From: a virus
Taxonomy: Duplodnaviria > Heunggongvirae > Uroviricota > Caudoviricetes
Direction: 5' to 3' (one strand)
IMG/VR virus record: IMGVR_UViG_2541047706_000005
Location: 1-46,627 of that record
DNA length: 46,627 nt
The position numbers and the translations under genes are program-made. The notes under the pieces were generated by a model, which worked only from the letters and a program-made list of their open reading frames with translations, had not been told where the DNA came from and searched no databases. This document shows, piece by piece, positions 38,430 through 46,627 of the stretch (the first letter of the stretch is position 1; each line of letters begins with the position of its first letter).

Positions 38430-38758
38430 GAACCTATGGCCGAAACTCTGAGGGGAAGTGGGTCCTGGTGGAAACCGACGAATATGGGTTTAATGACTCG
38501 GTGTATTTAACCACCCTGATCCAGAATCTGAAACTGGCGCCGCAGGAGTCGCCCTTTTACGCAAATAACGGAATCCCGGCCGCCGGGTCGGTGATCCAGC
38601 AAATCCTGCCGACGTATTACGTAAACCGTATTCAAAAACAGTTCAGCCAGTATTTTTCCTCGCTACAGATTGCGCTGATCAGCGACGACCCGCCTGTTTA
38701 TAACATCTCGGCAATCACAAACGCAGGTTCAAAAATAATTACACAGGTGGCCGTATGA
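38426..38758 (+). CDS. Small baseplate protein (GpW-like position)
   Basis: 110 aa preceding the J-like gene. Confidence 0.4.
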   Translation: MRTYGRNSEGKWVLVETDEYGFNDSVYLTTLIQNLKLAPQESPFYANNGIPAAGSVIQQILPTYYVNRIQKQFSQYFSSLQIALISDDPPVYNISAITNAGSKIITQVAV

Positions 38759-40173
38759 GCGATTTACCAGTCAGCTATACGTCAGCAGGCCCGGTTCCTC
38801 TGACGCCGGAAGAGCTAAGAGCACAGCTCGTTTCTCAGGCAATTGCGCTATCTCCGGGACTCACAACTGATTTGCCTGGATCTCTGATTGAGGACGTGGC
38901 CAGTACCGATGTCGGCGCGCTCATCGTTTGTGATCAAGCAAGGGTTGACCTGATTAACTCGGTGGGGCCACTAAAGGCTAACCTGGCCATGCTGGAGCTT
39001 CTCGCACAGCAGGCTGGTATCCCTGGGCAGAAAACGGCTGGCACAACAACAGTCCCGGTTCAGTTTTCCGGCCCCGCGGGATTTGTTATCCCACAGGGGT
39101 TTATTGTTTCTGATGGGACCTATACCTATTCAGTCAGTGATGCGACGATTATCTCGTCGTCTGGAGTATCTGCCAGCGTATCATGCGAGGGAACGGAGAC
39201 CGGGACCTGGGCGGTGCCGGTAAATACGGTTAACCAGATCATATCCAGTCTACCGTCTGACGTCACCATCACCTGCACCAACCCGATCGCCGGCACTCCG
39301 GGTGCTGACCCGGAAACGAACTATCAGTTTCGTGATCGCGTATGGCAGGCGCAGATGGCCACCGTTCAGGGATATCCTGGATTTATCCGGCAATATCTCA
39401 CCAGCCTTGATAACGTGCAGGCGCGCCTGGTTTCTGTCATTCAGGACGGGGATAAATGGATAGTCATGTGTGCCGGCGGTGATATTTACGATATTGCTGG
39501 CGCGCTCTATAAGTCTGCGGGGGATATCAGCCGGCTGAAAGGGTGTTCACTGAACGTAACGGGGATCACGAATGCAAATCCTGGTGTCGTCAGCACAGAC
39601 CTGACTCATGGTTACACTGACGGCCAGGTTATCCGGATCACTGGCGTTACCGGGATGACGGGTATTAATGACGTCCCTCTGACCGTGACGGTACTGTCTC
39701 CTCACACGTTTTCCATCGGGATTGACACCACGTCATCCGGGACCTGGGGAGGCGGCGGCGAGGTGACACCGAACGTCAGAAACAATACCGTGACGGTGAA
39801 TGACTGGCCTGATAACTACGTGATCCCGTTCGTGACGCCATTGCTGCAGCGGGTCACTGTGACGTATCAGTGGGGGACAGAAAGTGTTAACTACCTGACA
39901 GATGCCACGGTCGCCTCTCTGGTCTCGGCGCCTACGATTCAGTATGTGAACGGCATATTCGCCGGGAAACCGCTGAACGTTAACAACCTGAAAGACGCAT
40001 TTTTGCAGGCGATTAACTCGACAATCGACATGGGGCTGATCAGCACTCTAAACGTCGTGGTCACCATCAATGGTGTGATAACGCCACCGGATGCCGGGAC
40101 GAATATCATCAGCGGCGATAAGTTCAGTTATTTTTATATCGCGTCGGATGGCGTGATCGTAACAGGGGCGTAG
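38755..40173 (+). CDS. Baseplate J-like protein with Ig-like module
   Basis: 472 aa; contains THGYTDGQVIRITGVTGMTGINDVPLTVTVLSPHTFSI module. Confidence 0.5.
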   Translation: MSDLPVSYTSAGPVPLTPEELRAQLVSQAIALSPGLTTDLPGSLIEDVASTDVGALIVCDQARVDLINSVGPLKANLAMLELLAQQAGIPGQKTAGTTTVPVQFSGPAGFVIPQGFIVSDGTYTYSVSDATIISSSGVSASVSCEGTETGTWAVPVNTVNQIISSLPSDVTITCTNPIAGTPGADPETNYQFRDRVWQAQMATVQGYPGFIRQYLTSLDNVQARLVSVIQDGDKWIVMCAGGDIYDIAGALYKSAGDISRLKGCSLNVTGITNANPGVVSTDLTHGYTDGQVIRITGVTGMTGINDVPLTVTVLSPHTFSIGIDTTSSGTWGGGGEVTPNVRNNTVTVNDWPDNYVIPFVTPLLQRVTVTYQWGTESVNYLTDATVASLVSAPTIQYVNGIFAGKPLNVNNLKDAFLQAINSTIDMGLISTLNVVVTINGVITPPDAGTNIISGDKFSYFYIASDGVIVTGA

Positions 40174-40174
40174 C

Positions 40175-40879
40175 ATGCTGGACGATATCATCCGGTCGTA
40201 TATGTATACGCAATACAACGACGATGACAATCTGCGGGCGTTTTTTACTGCGTATAACTCGATGGCGCAGGGCATTTATGACTGGATGGTTAATGCCAAC
40301 CTGCCGATTTTCATCGGTGACTACAACACCGGAGACCAGCTCAGATGGATTGCCCATGGCATCTATGGCGTGTTGCCGCCGGTGATTTCCAGCAGCGATC
40401 AGCAGGAGATAGGCCCATATAACACCTTCGAATTTAACCAGTTGGCATTCAATGAATACCGGGTGATTGACCAGTCGAACCAGGTTGTTGTCTCCGATGA
40501 CATTTTTAAGCGGATCATGACCTGGAATTTTTATAAAGGTGACGGCTTCTATTTCTCTATCCCATGGATAAAACGGCGTATTCTGCGGTTCCTGTTGGGA
40601 GTGAATGGCACCGATATCCTCAATGACCAGCGGTGGAGTATATCGATCCAGTTTGTGGATGGCGGGATCGTGATATCCATCTATAAGGGGCGCCGCAGGT
40701 TCACGCGGAGCGCTATCTACAACGCATCGGCCTATAACTCCAGGAAGTACAACCAGAAGGACACGGCCTTTGTGATCACCGAGGATTTCGAGTTCGCTAT
40801 TTTCTTCAAGCAGGCCATGGATAGCGGCCTGCTGCACATGCCGTTCTATCAGTCAATTTCGGTGGAAATTATTGATTGA
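40175..40879 (+). CDS. Baseplate/tail protein
   Basis: ORF track. Confidence 0.45.
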   Translation: MLDDIIRSYMYTQYNDDDNLRAFFTAYNSMAQGIYDWMVNANLPIFIGDYNTGDQLRWIAHGIYGVLPPVISSSDQQEIGPYNTFEFNQLAFNEYRVIDQSNQVVVSDDIFKRIMTWNFYKGDGFYFSIPWIKRRILRFLLGVNGTDILNDQRWSISIQFVDGGIVISIYKGRRRFTRSAIYNASAYNSRKYNQKDTAFVITEDFEFAIFFKQAMDSGLLHMPFYQSISVEIID

Positions 40880-40937
40880 AGCACAGTTCCTGTGGTGTAG
40901 AATTTATCGCATCCACCACAGCATGGTTATCATTAAA

Positions 40938-41639
40938 ATGAAAAAATTGGTCCTTCTCGGATTATTGTCAGTTTCACTATGCACGGGTACTTCCCTTGCA
41001 GCTTCATTTGATTGCTCTAAAGCAAAAAGCTTTGCTGAGAAAACAATATGTGAGAACCCTAAGCTTTCAAAGGATGATGATGACTTAAAATATTTATATG
41101 CAAACGCTAAGGCATACACCAAAGACCGGAAGGCGTTTTCTGAGATAACTAAAGCTCTTTTGGATTCAAGAGAACGTTGCAGTGATCTCAAATGTGTTGA
41201 TGAATGGTATGATACTGCGTTTGCAATTTACGGCGCCATAAAGGAAACTGGCATACCAGAAACCAATGGCGTAAATGATATATTAAAGAATGAAGGTGTA
41301 ACAAAACCTTCAGAAATTAATGAAAAACCTACTGAGATTACAACGCCGTCAGCCAAGAAGACAAAGGAAAACAAAAAAGATTTTAGTTTGTACGACTCAA
41401 AGGATAGAGCCGCGCCAGTTGAACATAACGCAATATTATATAAAGACACTCCAGAGGCATTCGAATTTATAGATACACTTGTTGGGTTTGTCAGACAAAG
41501 CTCTTACAAATGTGACTCTGTTAGCTCTTTCATACCCTTGGTTTCATCGAATGGCTTTACGCTCGCATGTAATAAATTCAGCTACAAATATGAAATTAAA
41601 AATAACGGCGGAAATGTCTCTGTTTCTGTAGATAATTAG
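40938..41639 (+). CDS. Secreted DUF1311/LprI-like protein (moron)
   Basis: Signal peptide MKKLVLLGLLSVSLCTGTSLAAS; Cys motif C..A..FAEKTIC..P.L...D..L..LY; AT-rich, own promoter-like element and terminator. Confidence 0.6.
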   Translation: MKKLVLLGLLSVSLCTGTSLAASFDCSKAKSFAEKTICENPKLSKDDDDLKYLYANAKAYTKDRKAFSEITKALLDSRERCSDLKCVDEWYDTAFAIYGAIKETGIPETNGVNDILKNEGVTKPSEINEKPTEITTPSAKKTKENKKDFSLYDSKDRAAPVEHNAILYKDTPEAFEFIDTLVGFVRQSSYKCDSVSSFIPLVSSNGFTLACNKFSYKYEIKNNGGNVSVSVDN

Positions 41640-41687
41640 CTCAAAGCCCACGCCAGTGGGATTTCATAAATAACACATTGATAACAT

Positions 41688-41712
41688 CAAACCCGCTTCG
41701 GCGGGTTTTTTT
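41688..41712 (+). terminator. Rho-independent terminator after the moron
   Basis: aacccgc-ttcg-gcgggtt followed by T-run. Confidence 0.65.
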
Positions 41713-41733
41713 ATGCCTAAATCCGGAGGAGAC

Positions 41734-44640
41734 ATGGCACTAACCCTTTTGGCTACAAACAACGCAGAAAGCACGCTGGCTTCTGCTATCAGCGCAACCG
41801 ACACGTCGCTGATCGTTAGCGCTGGAACTGGTGCCGAGTTCCCTGATGCTGTGGCAGGCGAGAGCTACTTTAAACTCACTCTCACCGATGCCGCCACCGG
41901 CTCACAGGTTGAGATCGTGAACGTGACAGCCAAGGCTGGGGACATCTTCACGATTGAACGCGCACAGGAAGGAACGATGGCGCGTGCATGGGCGGCCAAC
42001 GATATGGTTGCCAATATGATGACCGCTGACACGCTGAATGTGATCGCACAATACACGCAGCAGGCCGGGGAATCAGCAGCACAGTCAATTGAGGCGGCTA
42101 ATAACGCCTCTGAATATGCAAAGAACAAATATACATTCTACAAAACCGCCGGCGATCCTGATGGCACCATTGCGGGCCTGGCGGCGACAACTGACGGACA
42201 GTCGTTCTGGGTAGCTCAGGGGCCAGATGCGCTTTCTGCTGCATGGCAGTATCAAAACAATGCTGGCGTGGCCGTATTGCAGGCAAAGCAGCCAGGCACG
42301 GCAGCCATAACCGGGACAATCCGCGAATTCCCCACGCTGGAGGCGGCACAGGATGATGCCGATGCCGGCAATATTCCTACAGGTTCAACTGCGTATTATC
42401 GAAGCGCTGACGACGAAACTCTTGCGATTGAGGTCATTAACACTTCAGGAACGCTGCAGCCTACTGGACGAAAAATGCCATCCGCAATGCCAATGGGTTA
42501 CCAGTCTGCTACAGCTGTGAGTAGCGGTGCGGCTAATACCATTGCTATCACTATCCCCGGATTATTAGTGGACGGAAGCTTAATTTATTTTCTGTCCCCT
42601 ATATTGAACACCTCATCAGTCAATGTGACTGTAACTGATGCTAAGGGTAATTCTGTAATAAGAGCTGTACAGAAACAAAATAACGCGCCATTAGTCGGAA
42701 GTGAATTGCTGCTAAACCAGCCAGTATTAATGGAATTCCGCACTGGGACTGCTAACAATTTTGTCCTTGTGGCATCCGGCCCAGTAGCTGCTGAACTTGC
42801 GTCAAGAATTTCCACGCTTGAATTAAATAGCGTAGCGTTATTGTCTGGCGTTGCTAATACTGCGGACGCCTACACCGCGTCAGCGTCAGCGATACCAGGC
42901 CTGGTTGCCTCTGACCGCGTTTTCCTTTTCACTCCGAGTGCGACGAACACGACACGGACGCCGACCTTATCCGTGAATGGCGGCACTGCGCGCCAGATCA
43001 AACAGGCGAATGGTACCAACGTCGCAGCGGGAGACCTGGTCTCTGGCTACCCTTATTTATTAAAATTCAATTTTGCATCGGCTGACTTTCGTATGCTCAC
43101 ATACCCAGCGGACCGGACGCGTCTGCTCAGCGGCCAGCAGAAGGCCACCGTAACCAGTGACGCAACAAGCCCGAACGCTATATCTTTAACAATCCCGGGC
43201 CTTATCGCGGACGGCACACAAATCACATTCGAGCCAGCTGTCACCAATACCGGGGCGGTGACGCTGCTAATCACCAACATGTATGGCGACACCGTGACTC
43301 GCACCCTGATGAAAGGGGCTAACACTCCTCTCGTCGGTGGTGAACTGAAGTACGCCATGCCGGTTTCTATCATGTTCAGGGGGGCTCCACAGAACAACTT
43401 TAAGCTCCTATATGCTGGCGACCCTACCACGGATATACAGACCCTATCGAACGACGTTACGACGCTCAAGGGGTCGCTGACAGACCCTTATGCTGCTCTG
43501 GCGGATAAACTCGTGGGCACCGGGGTATCATCAGACCAGTCACCATTCGGTACTATAACTTGGTCCGCGGGGGTTAAGAGCGTCACTAAGCGGCAGATCA
43601 TTTGTACGTCTGTCGGGTCTTCTGTTGGCGTTGGGGCCGGCTCTACTGGCGGTGGTGCGGCAGGTGCCGCTTATGCACCGAACACACTGTTCGTCAACGC
43701 CTTGAAGGAAGAGCTTAAACAGTACGGCGAGTTTGACGTCATCGATGACAACCAGTGCATACCAACTCAGGCGATTCAGCAGTTCGCTGCCCAGCTAGCG
43801 AATTCGCCTTATTCAACCTCCGACTTTGTTTTGATTGTAGGGGGGATGAATGATGCGCCAGTTGGTAACTTCAACATGGGGCGCACATTCCCCGGTCAAC
43901 AAACGTCTCTCGAGTCGCTGGTAGACTTGTGTCTGGCACGAGGAGCGATTCCAATCATTTGCACTACTCCACATCATAATGTGGAAATGTCTCAGACGTA
44001 CCCCACAATCCCCGGTGGTAACCCGCTGTTCTGGCCGTTCAGGACATATAATGTCACAAGTACATATGTCTTCGACGCCGTTGCAAATACCATCACGCAG
44101 AGTAACTTTGCTAACCCGAATTATGGCGGCAATATTCTGAAGCCGGGGCATACTCTGCGCGTAGAAAGTGGAGACAATATCGGCAACTATACTATCACGG
44201 CCATTTCCTCTGACCGGAATACCATAACCGTCCAAGAGACAATCCCGGTAAGTGGAAGCTACTCGACAACGGTCAGACACTTTAACCTGCAGTCCATCGC
44301 TGAGGATATTCTTTACCCTGCACCGTCGGTTTCCTTTGTAACAAAAGACTGGTCCGGTAGCGGCGTTAAGGTACAGGGAGATGTGCGGTTCGAAATGGTG
44401 AATAATATGCAAAGGGTCGTCGCACGCAAAAAAGGCGCGTTCCTCGCAGACTGTGAAAAGTCGTTCTTTAAGTATGGTGTAGAGGTTGGTGGTTACTCGT
44501 CGGTATATAACGTCCCAGCTGGAAACTACAATCACATGAACGATAACGGGTACACAGTAACTTTCGACTACACGCTGAAAGTCGCAGCAAGGAAGATTGC
44601 CAATCTCATATTCGGAGATAAATATTACTCTGCAGCATAA
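41734..44640 (+). CDS. Tail fibre protein with three internal repeats and C-terminal SGNH/GDSL-hydrolase-like domain
   Basis: N-terminal domain shared with second fibre; three approximately 90-aa repeats (IPGL..DG...PLVGGEL...NF.L); C-terminal blocks GSSVG and GGMNDAP. Confidence 0.65.
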   Translation: MALTLLATNNAESTLASAISATDTSLIVSAGTGAEFPDAVAGESYFKLTLTDAATGSQVEIVNVTAKAGDIFTIERAQEGTMARAWAANDMVANMMTADTLNVIAQYTQQAGESAAQSIEAANNASEYAKNKYTFYKTAGDPDGTIAGLAATTDGQSFWVAQGPDALSAAWQYQNNAGVAVLQAKQPGTAAITGTIREFPTLEAAQDDADAGNIPTGSTAYYRSADDETLAIEVINTSGTLQPTGRKMPSAMPMGYQSATAVSSGAANTIAITIPGLLVDGSLIYFLSPILNTSSVNVTVTDAKGNSVIRAVQKQNNAPLVGSELLLNQPVLMEFRTGTANNFVLVASGPVAAELASRISTLELNSVALLSGVANTADAYTASASAIPGLVASDRVFLFTPSATNTTRTPTLSVNGGTARQIKQANGTNVAAGDLVSGYPYLLKFNFASADFRMLTYPADRTRLLSGQQKATVTSDATSPNAISLTIPGLIADGTQITFEPAVTNTGAVTLLITNMYGDTVTRTLMKGANTPLVGGELKYAMPVSIMFRGAPQNNFKLLYAGDPTTDIQTLSNDVTTLKGSLTDPYAALADKLVGTGVSSDQSPFGTITWSAGVKSVTKRQIICTSVGSSVGVGAGSTGGGAAGAAYAPNTLFVNALKEELKQYGEFDVIDDNQCIPTQAIQQFAAQLANSPYSTSDFVLIVGGMNDAPVGNFNMGRTFPGQQTSLESLVDLCLARGAIPIICTTPHHNVEMSQTYPTIPGGNPLFWPFRTYNVTSTYVFDAVANTITQSNFANPNYGGNILKPGHTLRVESGDNIGNYTITAISSDRNTITVQETIPVSGSYSTTVRHFNLQSIAEDILYPAPSVSFVTKDWSGSGVKVQGDVRFEMVNNMQRVVARKKGAFLADCEKSFFKYGVEVGGYSSVYNVPAGNYNHMNDNGYTVTFDYTLKVAARKIANLIFGDKYYSAA

Positions 44641-45027: not shown

Positions 45028-45267
45028 ATGCTTCGACAGTCAGACATCGCCGCGGCTTTCCGCGAGTCCATTTTGCGCAGTTCCAAGGGGTTCCAGTACC
45101 TCCACACCCGCGACTTCGTTACCGCGCTTCGCCGGCGTGGCATCCATTTTTCCGAGGTGGAGGCGAACTCCTGGATCGCACGCGAGCAGACGTATTTCGT
45201 CGATAAGACGCCGGACCATAGCGAAAACAGGCTGTGGATGATGGCCAACATGGGGAGGGTGATCTAA
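45028..45267 (+). CDS. Small protein (79 aa) of unknown function, putatively SOS-regulated
   Basis: Start MLRQSDIAAAF with RBS; within ORF-track frame 44914..45267. Confidence 0.5.
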   Translation: MLRQSDIAAAFRESILRSSKGFQYLHTRDFVTALRRRGIHFSEVEANSWIAREQTYFVDKTPDHSENRLWMMANMGRVI

Positions 45268-45584
45268 TGGGATTCCCTTCACCAGCGACGGACTACGTTG
45301 AGCAAAGGTTGTCTGTTAACTCGATCTGCAATGTCGGCCCAAACACGCTAGTTTTCGAGCGATCTGGCGGTTACGTTGTGCTGGATATCTCCCTGAAGCC
45401 AAAGCAGGGTAGTCAGGTTCTTATCCAGCACGGCGGCGGGACGGAGCTTGCCACGCTGAGAGGAAAGTCACTGATTACTGAAGATGGTGAAGCGATCGAG
45501 GGCGAAGCCCTGGACGATGTTACTGTCATCGGCGTCGTGACGTTTACTATCTGCGATGTTCGTTCCGATAATTCTATTATTTAA
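45267..45584 (+). CDS. UmuD'-like protein lacking the N-terminal arm and apparently lacking the catalytic Ser
   Basis: Begins MGFPSPATDYVEQRLSVN, aligning with UmuD from its Cys24-Gly25 cleavage site (CGFPSPAADYVEQR); SGDSM region reads RSGGYV. Confidence 0.55.
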   Translation: MGFPSPATDYVEQRLSVNSICNVGPNTLVFERSGGYVVLDISLKPKQGSQVLIQHGGGTELATLRGKSLITEDGEAIEGEALDDVTVIGVVTFTICDVRSDNSII

Positions 45585-45595
45585 CTGGGGTATAT

Positions 45596-46627
45596 ATGGC
45601 GATGAAGCTATTAGCCAATAATAACGCAAAGAGTGTTCTCGCTGCGGGTATTAGCGCGTCCGCTACCGTTATTACCGTGGGTACTGGAGCGGGGTCTTTA
45701 TTCCCGTCCCCTGTATCTGGGCAGAGTTATTTCAAATTAACGATAACCGACGCGGCCACGAAAACAATTTCTGAAATTATGCACGTCACGTCTGTATCCG
45801 GTGACGTGATGACAGTAATTCGTGGTCAGGAAGGAACTACGGCACGCGTATGGTCAACGAATGACATTGTCGCGAATTTAATGACCGCCGGATCATTGTT
45901 GTCGTTCCTGCAGATCAGCAATAACCTGTCAGAAATTAAAGATGCCGGTGAGGATGCGATAAATGAAGCCCGTTATAACCTCGGAATATCTGATTCCTCT
46001 GGTTTTGTCGGGCGTTCACTTGGCGCTCCAAAAGCTTTCTATGCAAACGGAACCTATACGCGATCTCCTCTGGCCCGTTATGCAAAAGTAACGTTGACCG
46101 GTGCCGGTGGCGGCGGTGGCGGCTGCCAGGCCTCCAACAATACAGAAACCTTCTCCGGTGCTGGCGGCGGCGCGGGCGCGACCATTATCGTATGGGTTGA
46201 CCTGTCTGCTGCCAGTTCTTATGCGATTACTGTCGGCAAGGGTGGTAAGGGCGGAGTTGGCGCAGTAAGTGGTGCGGATGGTGGGGCCACCTCGTTTGCC
46301 AGCCTGTTCTCAGCTCCTGGCGGGAAAGGAGGAGTGAAGTCAGGCGTGTCCAATACCGCCGGCGGCGCCGGAGGTACGGCGGCGACCGGAGATATCAGGA
46401 TCAACGGTGGTACCGGCTCAGATGGACAGACAGGCTCAAGCCTTCTGACGGGCAACGGCGGGGCGTCGTATTTTGGCGGCGGTGGCCGGGCGGGTTCTCA
46501 GGCCGGTATTGCTGGCGCAGCTCCCGGATCCGGTGGTGGTGGCGCGTATGACCTTGGGTTTACCGGTACGGCATTTACCGGTGGTGATGGTGCTACTGGC
46601 ATGGCGATCGTGGAAGAATTCGCGTAA
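45596..46627 (+). CDS. Second tail-fibre protein (paralogous N-terminus, Gly-rich C-terminal domain)
   Basis: N-terminal about 100 aa alignable with the first fibre; C-terminus rich in GGxGG repeats. Confidence 0.65.
   Translation: MAMKLLANNNAKSVLAAGISASATVITVGTGAGSLFPSPVSGQSYFKLTITDAATKTISEIMHVTSVSGDVMTVIRGQEGTTARVWSTNDIVANLMTAGSLLSFLQISNNLSEIKDAGEDAINEARYNLGISDSSGFVGRSLGAPKAFYANGTYTRSPLARYAKVTLTGAGGGGGGCQASNNTETFSGAGGGAGATIIVWVDLSAASSYAITVGKGGKGGVGAVSGADGGATSFASLFSAPGGKGGVKSGVSNTAGGAGGTAATGDIRINGGTGSDGQTGSSLLTGNGGASYFGGGGRAGSQAGIAGAAPGSGGGGAYDLGFTGTAFTGGDGATGMAIVEEFA

Follow-up and report, generated by a model that had tools for sequence, protein, structure and literature searches.

Otwinowska et al. 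(PLoS Biol 2026; PMC13123978) reported hydrolysis of p-nitrophenyl acetate by two SGNH fibres, 164_08-KL2 and 174_38-KL55. The latter, an 839-residue protein from a Klebsiella prophage, has two Pfam PF13472 segments at residues 487-638 and 728-818 (PMC13123978, supplementary table). Gp63.1 of Escherichia phage G7C (PDB 4qnl) takes the O-acetyl group off the O-antigen and is required for infection, gp66 of Pectobacterium phage Possum O-deacetylates the O-polysaccharide, as shown by nuclear magnetic resonance, and two further surveys found SGNH receptor-binding proteins to be common in Klebsiella and Acinetobacter prophages and phages. Here we describe a tail-fibre gene in a 46,627-nucleotide (nt) stretch of Caudoviricetes DNA (IMG/VR record IMGVR_UViG_2541047706_000005, positions 1 to 46,627; hereafter the window), the C-terminal third of which encodes an SGNH-type esterase domain, most likely deacetylating host surface sugars. 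With good though not full confidence, we take the product to be an enzymatic receptor-binding fibre with an SGNH carbohydrate O-acetylesterase tip, carried by a temperate, contractile-tail-type Escherichia coli prophage that adjoins ybhB-bioA. Residue numbers are those of the 968-residue product of the following gene unless stated otherwise.

41734-44640, + strand: tail-fibre gene, 968 residues plus stop; the open reading frame (ORF) is open from 41713, with 41734 as the likely start

SGNH blocks, profile matches and predicted fold of the fibre tip

An earlier note, made from the letters of this DNA alone, had proposed that the C-terminal third of a '970-aa' fibre, from position 43590 on, contains the SGNH blocks GSSVG and GGMNDAP. 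The likely product has 968 residues from 41734, position 43590 agrees with that of the first beta strand in the model (nt 43591), and the two blocks occur once each, 75 residues apart and in the correct order, with no other G[DS]S or G.ND match anywhere in the sequence. That they are more than a chance occurrence is borne out by the Pfam match, the family profile and the fold. The elements of the domain are as follows.

43591-44040, + strand: SGNH domain, N-terminal half (strands 1-4, blocks I-III and a T-T-P-H motif), delimited by PF13472, AlphaFold2 (AF2) and conservation
43615-43629, + strand: block I, GSSVG, residues 628-632; Ser630 (codon 43621-43623) is the predicted nucleophile
43750-43767, + strand: block II, N-Q-C-I-P-T, with Thr678 (codon 43765-43767) where an oxyanion-hole Gly is usual
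43840-43860, + strand: block III, GGMNDAP, residues 703-709; Asn706 (codon 43849-43851) is a predicted oxyanion-hole residue
44041-44289, + strand: inserted all-beta domain of ~83 residues that splits the SGNH fold, delimited by homologue coverage and AF2
44290-44637, + strand: SGNH domain, C-terminal half (strand 5, an L-x-D-x-E motif at 44443-44457, block V and a terminal helix)
44521-44544, + strand: block V, G-N-Y-N-H-M-N-D, with His934 (codon 44533-44535) as predicted general base and Asn931 (44524-44526) instead of the canonical Asp

Searched with the isolated C-terminal domain, Pfam gave a match to Lipase_GDSL_2 (PF13472) with an expect value (E) of 5.2e-7 and 30.8 bits, in which profile positions 3-107 of 178 were aligned, and PHROG 18703 ('tail fiber protein') matched the C-terminal region with E 1.7e-15. 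NCBIfam held no match for the fibre, and phmmer searches of PDB sequences, run with the full-length fibre and with its C-terminal domain, returned only the anchor of 8jov, described below, and chance low-complexity matches. An exhaustive search of 1.84 billion cluster representatives yielded 137 homologues at E <= 1e-3, most of them proteins of 400-1000 residues with the domain at or near the C-terminus; a word-indexed search gave 14 relatives, from Klebsiella or unnamed sources, most with a precomputed PF13472 match. PF13472 was present in 56 of the 70 homologues checked (E <= 1e-3, best 7.6e-16) and PF00657 in 13 of the 70, and several homologues bear N-terminal domains of phage fibres or spikes (T7 tail fibre, P22 head-binding, tail-collar and Tail_spike_N).

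A family profile built from 130 homologues reached solved SGNH enzymes by sequence, with E values ranging overall from 6e-8 to 1e-3: LAE5 (5jd3, 6e-8), YxiM (2o14, 1.8e-7), 9otv (8e-7), TesA (4jgg, 4e-6) and 1yzf (7e-5). The block I columns GlGSSVg aligned with LGDSLTAG of the solved esterases 9otv and TesA, placing GSS on GDS; N-x-S-x-x-G of block II aligned with N-x-G-I-S-G of solved enzymes; G-M-N-D of block III (residues 704-707) aligned with G-x-N-D of 5jd3, 2o14, 9otv and 4jgg (GAND, GIND or GGND); and 'eyvHPN' of block V fell on 'DRIHPN' in 5jd3 and 'DTLHPN' in 2o14. Towards the end of the domain, profile positions 339-400 aligned with residues 171-230 of LAE5 (E 6e-8 for the 5jd3 chain).

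The AF2 model of the C-terminal domain computed with 130 sequences, which replaced an earlier run with 13 homologues that was too poor (predicted local distance difference test, pLDDT, 59.7), has a pLDDT of 94.7 and a predicted template-modelling score of 0.91, with pLDDT mostly >90 in the SGNH N-terminal half. The modelled domain is a three-layer alpha/beta/alpha structure around a five-stranded parallel sheet, the predicted fold thus being that of the SGNH superfamily. All 47 Foldseek matches in the PDB at E <= 1e-3 were SGNH enzymes. Among viral predicted structures, the top matches were SGNH proteins of Vibrio phage 1.249.B and Escherichia phage K30, over ~350 columns (the whole query) with template-modelling scores (TM) of 0.63-0.64, and Pectobacterium tail spikes, that of Possum included, were also found. 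The SGNH fold that the earlier note had expected from structure and profile searches is therefore upheld by the AF2 model, the Foldseek matches and PF13472 in the homologues. The fold itself would also suit an O-acyltransferase of the PatB/OatA/AlgX type, adding acyl groups. We hold this to be very improbable, since PatB/OatA/AlgX-like proteins scored clearly below esterases, a virion protein outside the cell is without an activated acetyl donor, and no nearby gene encodes an acyltransferase partner.

About 45 of 150 homologues match continuously, insert included, whereas about two thirds match in two stretches (~10-157 and ~240-345) that skip the insert, and the SGNH core is therefore interrupted in a subset of the family by the ~83-residue domain. 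This insert is modelled as 6-7 strands (domain residues 161-238, counted from residue 613) with pLDDT 96-98. Searched alone, it had no Pfam or PDB sequence match. It is likely a glycan-binding or specificity module. Pfam gave no support for a suspected resemblance to the E1_FCCH-type barrel in baseplate J, encoded nearby.

Predicted catalytic residues and homology to an active esterase fibre

Among the homologues, the columns of Ser630, Asn706 and His934 hardly vary. In block I, Gly628 is Gly in all 136 homologues compared and Ser630 is Ser in 135 of 136, the block reading GSS and not GDS because Asp is replaced by Ser across the family. Asn706 of block III occupies a column with Asn in 141 of 142, in a block that also keeps Met (130/142) and Gly (123/141), and the column of His934 has His in 143 of 144. 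The column of Thr678 in block II, by contrast, has Gly in 128 of 141 homologues and Thr in 7, so that the window protein lacks the conserved Gly. The residue three before the catalytic His, Asn931 in the window protein, is Glu in 69 homologues, Gln in 26, Asn in 24 and Asp in 7. Of 133 homologues, 122 have the signature S-G-N-H and 6 share S-T-N-H with the window protein. Of the Ser-His-Asp triad looked for in the earlier note, Ser and His can thus be assigned, together with the oxyanion Asn, whereas the Asp is absent, Asn931 standing in its place, and the Gly of block II is Thr. Two family-specific motifs lie outside the canonical SGNH blocks: T-T-P-H (43963-43974), whose His747 is kept in 129 of 143 homologues, and L-x-D-x-E, whose Asp906 is kept in 133 of 146. 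They may serve in substrate binding or provide an alternative His-orienting residue.

The relationship to the experimentally characterised fibre was examined with the first 399 residues of 174_38 (PMC13123978, supplement), for which the best NCBI match was WP_255896696.1. Over 286 residues, the shaft of 174_38 is 71% identical to residues 262-545 of the window fibre (975-residue numbering), and both proteins combine a repeat shaft with a C-terminal SGNH domain split by an insert (~90 residues in 174_38). Residues 170-399 of 174_38 are 100% identical to P0161 (WP_255896607.1, 847 residues), and the length offset predicts the same C-terminus. Between P0161 and the window fibre, identity is 61% over 784 residues and 55% in the SGNH domain; P0161 shares GSSVG, GGMND, TTPH and the split Pfam match, and its block V, G-N-W-N-H-P-N, also has Asn three before the His. 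Homology to the lineage of the characterised member thus extends over the full length, and the shared architecture and the identity to P0161 and 174_38 make the window protein a homologue of an experimentally active esterase fibre. Judging from these sequences, the missing Asp is common to the window fibre and the 174_38 lineage. That the receptor-binding protein would be enzymatically active is well supported by its homology to the active esterase fibre.

Several points weigh against an active O-acetylesterase. The Thr678 variant is rare (the 6 of 133 above) and does not occur in the tested homologue, which keeps Gly; the canonical Asp of D-x-x-H is Asn931; the PF13472 score lies just below the gathering threshold of 32.9 bits (domain alone, 30.8; full-length protein, 27.3), and the alignment spans blocks I-III only. 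In addition, the SGNH domain of 174_38 is equated with its P0161/P0007 counterpart only through an identical flank and a matching length, and p-nitrophenyl acetate is a surrogate substrate.

The Thr in block II, the Asn for the triad Asp and the sub-threshold Pfam score would fit a catalytically dead SGNH-like domain that acts only as a lectin-like, glycan-binding tip. We nevertheless regard this as unlikely, because more than 130 homologues, the closest Thr-bearing ones included, retain Ser, the oxyanion Asn and His almost without exception, which would be unexpected after loss of catalysis, and because the cluster of the experimentally active esterase includes a homologue that likewise has Asn for the triad Asp. 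In the SGNH mechanism, moreover, the contribution of block II to the oxyanion hole is a backbone amide, which Thr can still supply.

Proposed mode of action

In the O-acetylesterase model, the N-terminal ~125 residues would anchor the fibre to the baseplate, three repeats of ~95 residues would form the shaft and the distal ~350 residues would constitute the split SGNH enzyme. Ser630 would attack an acetyl ester on a polysaccharide of the host surface (O-antigen, capsule or other exopolysaccharide) with His934 as general base, and the oxyanion would be held by the side chain of Asn706 together with two backbone amides, those of Ser630 and residue 678. With Asn931 replacing the His-orienting acid, the site would operate as a Ser-His dyad or in a Ser-His-Asn arrangement, and the inserted beta domain would probably help in glycan binding. 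By deacetylation the fibre could bind, process and release the glycan, and so set which strains are open to adsorption. The acetylated glycan substrate (O-antigen, capsule, colanic acid or other) and the role in host range we infer only.

An active SGNH hydrolase with a different substrate would share this catalytic apparatus and cleave instead the acyl chains of lipid A or phospholipids, like a lipase or acyloxyacyl hydrolase, or some other ester decoration that is not acetyl or not on a polysaccharide; we consider this quite unlikely. All three rivals, namely this one, the acyltransferase and the dead tip, are weaker than the O-acetylesterase reading. A tentative extension, possible in our view though we do not favour it, is that the fibre belongs to a distinct SGNH subfamily in which the His-orienting acid is dispensable or supplied elsewhere (e.g. 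by His747 or Asp906/Glu908), block II tolerates Thr, and the insert reads the glycan and sets serotype specificity. If so, swapping the insert, and not the catalytic core, would redirect the phage from the surface polysaccharides of Klebsiella to those of E. coli or the reverse.

Gene start, anchor, shaft and genomic setting

The ORF list gives a + strand frame at 41713-44640, 975 residues counted from the first ATG. This ATG (41713) lies inside the T-tail of an intrinsic terminator with a strong hairpin (stem 41689-41708), and the second ATG, at 41734, has GGAGG at 41725-41729, 4 nt upstream, and hence the product was taken to be 968 residues long. N-terminal to the SGNH domain, two further parts can be delimited.

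41734-42108, + strand: N-terminal anchor domain, residues 1-125, which attaches the fibre to the baseplate, as predicted from the PDB 8jov match and the likeness to the second fibre
42499-43425, + strand: shaft of three tandem repeats of ~90-97 residues, R1 (42499-42783), R2 (42850-43113) and R3 (43135-43425)

The N-terminus matches that of the tail-fibre chain of PDB 8jov (E 1.3e-8, phmmer against PDB sequences), and PHROG tail-fibre families match the N-terminal 270 residues. The 125-residue anchor is 50% identical to the N-terminus of the second fibre of the window (45596-46627), and its DNA is 97% identical in the Klebsiella phages RothC/D, where it is annotated 'tail spike receptor binding N-terminal domain protein'. 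The shaft repeats were missed by self-BLAST with default composition correction and were found by direct pairwise comparison (BLASTP; R1/R3, 41% identity, E 2e-23; R2/R3, E 5e-9; R1/R2, E 1e-6).

The gene stands directly downstream of baseplate J and other baseplate-module genes and upstream of the second fibre with the same anchor, so that the SGNH domain sits, as in phage SGNH-esterase fibres, in a tail fibre encoded within the tail/baseplate module. The structural module of the window is 95% identical in DNA to the Klebsiella temperate phages vB_Kpn_Chronis and RothC/D, as far as the first ~770 nt of the fibre gene. The 968-residue product from 41734 occurs verbatim in public data as WP_021518676.1/EQO33647.1, a 'hypothetical protein' of E. 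coli HVH 33, on a 2.3-Mb scaffold with phage tail genes followed by ybhB, bioA and bioB. From this exact product on an E. coli scaffold beside ybhB, bioA and bioB, the window is taken to be an E. coli prophage. A 240-residue antisense ORF in the SGNH-coding region (43813-44535, - strand) was considered and set aside as a by-product of the sense frame, without independent support; it recurs in related loci only because the DNA there is near-identical.

Distribution of the fibre tip

Of 5,426 complete E. coli genomes, a single one, that of strain 20KM2222, contained the SGNH part at >=85% DNA identity. At this identity it was also present in the records of two phages, Lambdavirus PDP110P1 and Wanchaivirus PDP110P2, neither of which is annotated. 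Both phages carry the shaft-plus-SGNH module at 97% DNA identity behind a different N-terminus, and the resulting ORFs, of 943 and 857 codons, are intact.

OZ035751.1, 2737-5568, and OZ035745.1, 2680-5253: shaft-plus-SGNH fusions in Lambdavirus and Wanchaivirus genomes, with the same 343-residue second fibre next in each

This distribution fits an exchange of fibre-tip modules among unrelated temperate phages, across genera.

In E. coli 20KM2222 (NZ_CP151050.1, 4240-7071), an intact ORF of 943 codons, its SGNH part 100% identical, has no gene annotation. In RefSeq, a pseudogene feature ('SGNH/GDSL hydrolase family protein, missing C-terminus') covers just the first ~650 nt of this ORF, which is probably an annotation artefact.

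Neighbouring genes

Between the last baseplate gene and the fibre lies a 255-residue ORF (40872-41708) with a signal-peptide/lipoprotein-like stretch (MKKLVLLGLLSVSLCTG...), a promoter-like site at 40876-40903, the strong terminator at 41689-41708 and a lower local G+C of 0.456. It had no Pfam match. It looks like a moron, that is, a cargo gene with its own promoter and terminator.

Further upstream, the baseplate J-like protein (38755-40173), which lies with further baseplate-module genes upstream of the fibre, contains an inserted small beta-barrel matched by Pfam E1_FCCH (residues 275-338, E 4e-14), an unusual label for a phage baseplate protein.

Downstream, the second fibre gene (45596-46627) encodes 343 residues and has, beyond its 125-residue anchor, a glycine-rich PF21722 domain. 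Given the anchor common to its product and the SGNH fibre, the phage has two receptor-binding fibres with the same kind of anchor. The segment between the two fibres (45028-45584) holds two small genes, of 79 and 105 residues in public gene calls, and the equivalent of the second is named 'DNA polymerase V subunit UmuD' in the RothC record. Pfam found nothing in the two overlapping ORFs at 45028-45584.

Comparison with known SGNH systems

The analysis supplies a functional name for a protein that NCBI lists as hypothetical, and points to a glycan-modifying enzyme, not a depolymerase, as the putative host-range determinant of the prophage. With this protein, the SGNH-fibre family of Klebsiella prophages reaches into E. 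coli. The result also lends support to the recent idea that deacetylation of capsule or O-antigen is in common use among temperate phages of enterobacteria. Thr678, Asn931 and the inserted beta domain are handles for structure-function work, with no open question hinging on them.

Relative to the 174_38-type homologue, its nearest characterised counterpart, the window fibre has a different N-terminal anchor and an SGNH domain that is only ~55% identical; block II has Thr where P0161 has Gly, and the host is E. coli for the window prophage and Klebsiella for that of 174_38. G7C gp63.1 is far more distant, with only 11% sequence identity and a different domain position and surrounding domains, and its phage, unlike the window prophage, is virulent, an N4-like podovirus in which gp63.1 and gp66 form a branched apparatus. 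Possum gp66, the K30 SGNH protein (F8R4T7) and the window fibre are all phage receptor-binding proteins with SGNH domains, and F8R4T7 was the second-best match to the window domain among viral predicted structures (352 columns, TM 0.63). The first two nevertheless differ from the window fibre in virion type and domain order, with 12-20% identity to it. The bacterial SGNH/GDSL esterases (PF13472: 1yzf of Enterococcus faecalis, TesA/TAP, the acetyl-xylan esterase Axe2 and LAE5, 5jd3) have GDS where the window fibre has GSS; the window fibre in addition shows Thr for the block II Gly and Asn for the block V Asp (mostly Glu or Gln in its family), the extra T-T-P-H motif, the inserted beta domain and the fusion to a phage fibre. 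Phage fibres of this type have already been described and the class was recently characterised, the only unusual features here being the block II Thr, the Asn before the His and the insert.

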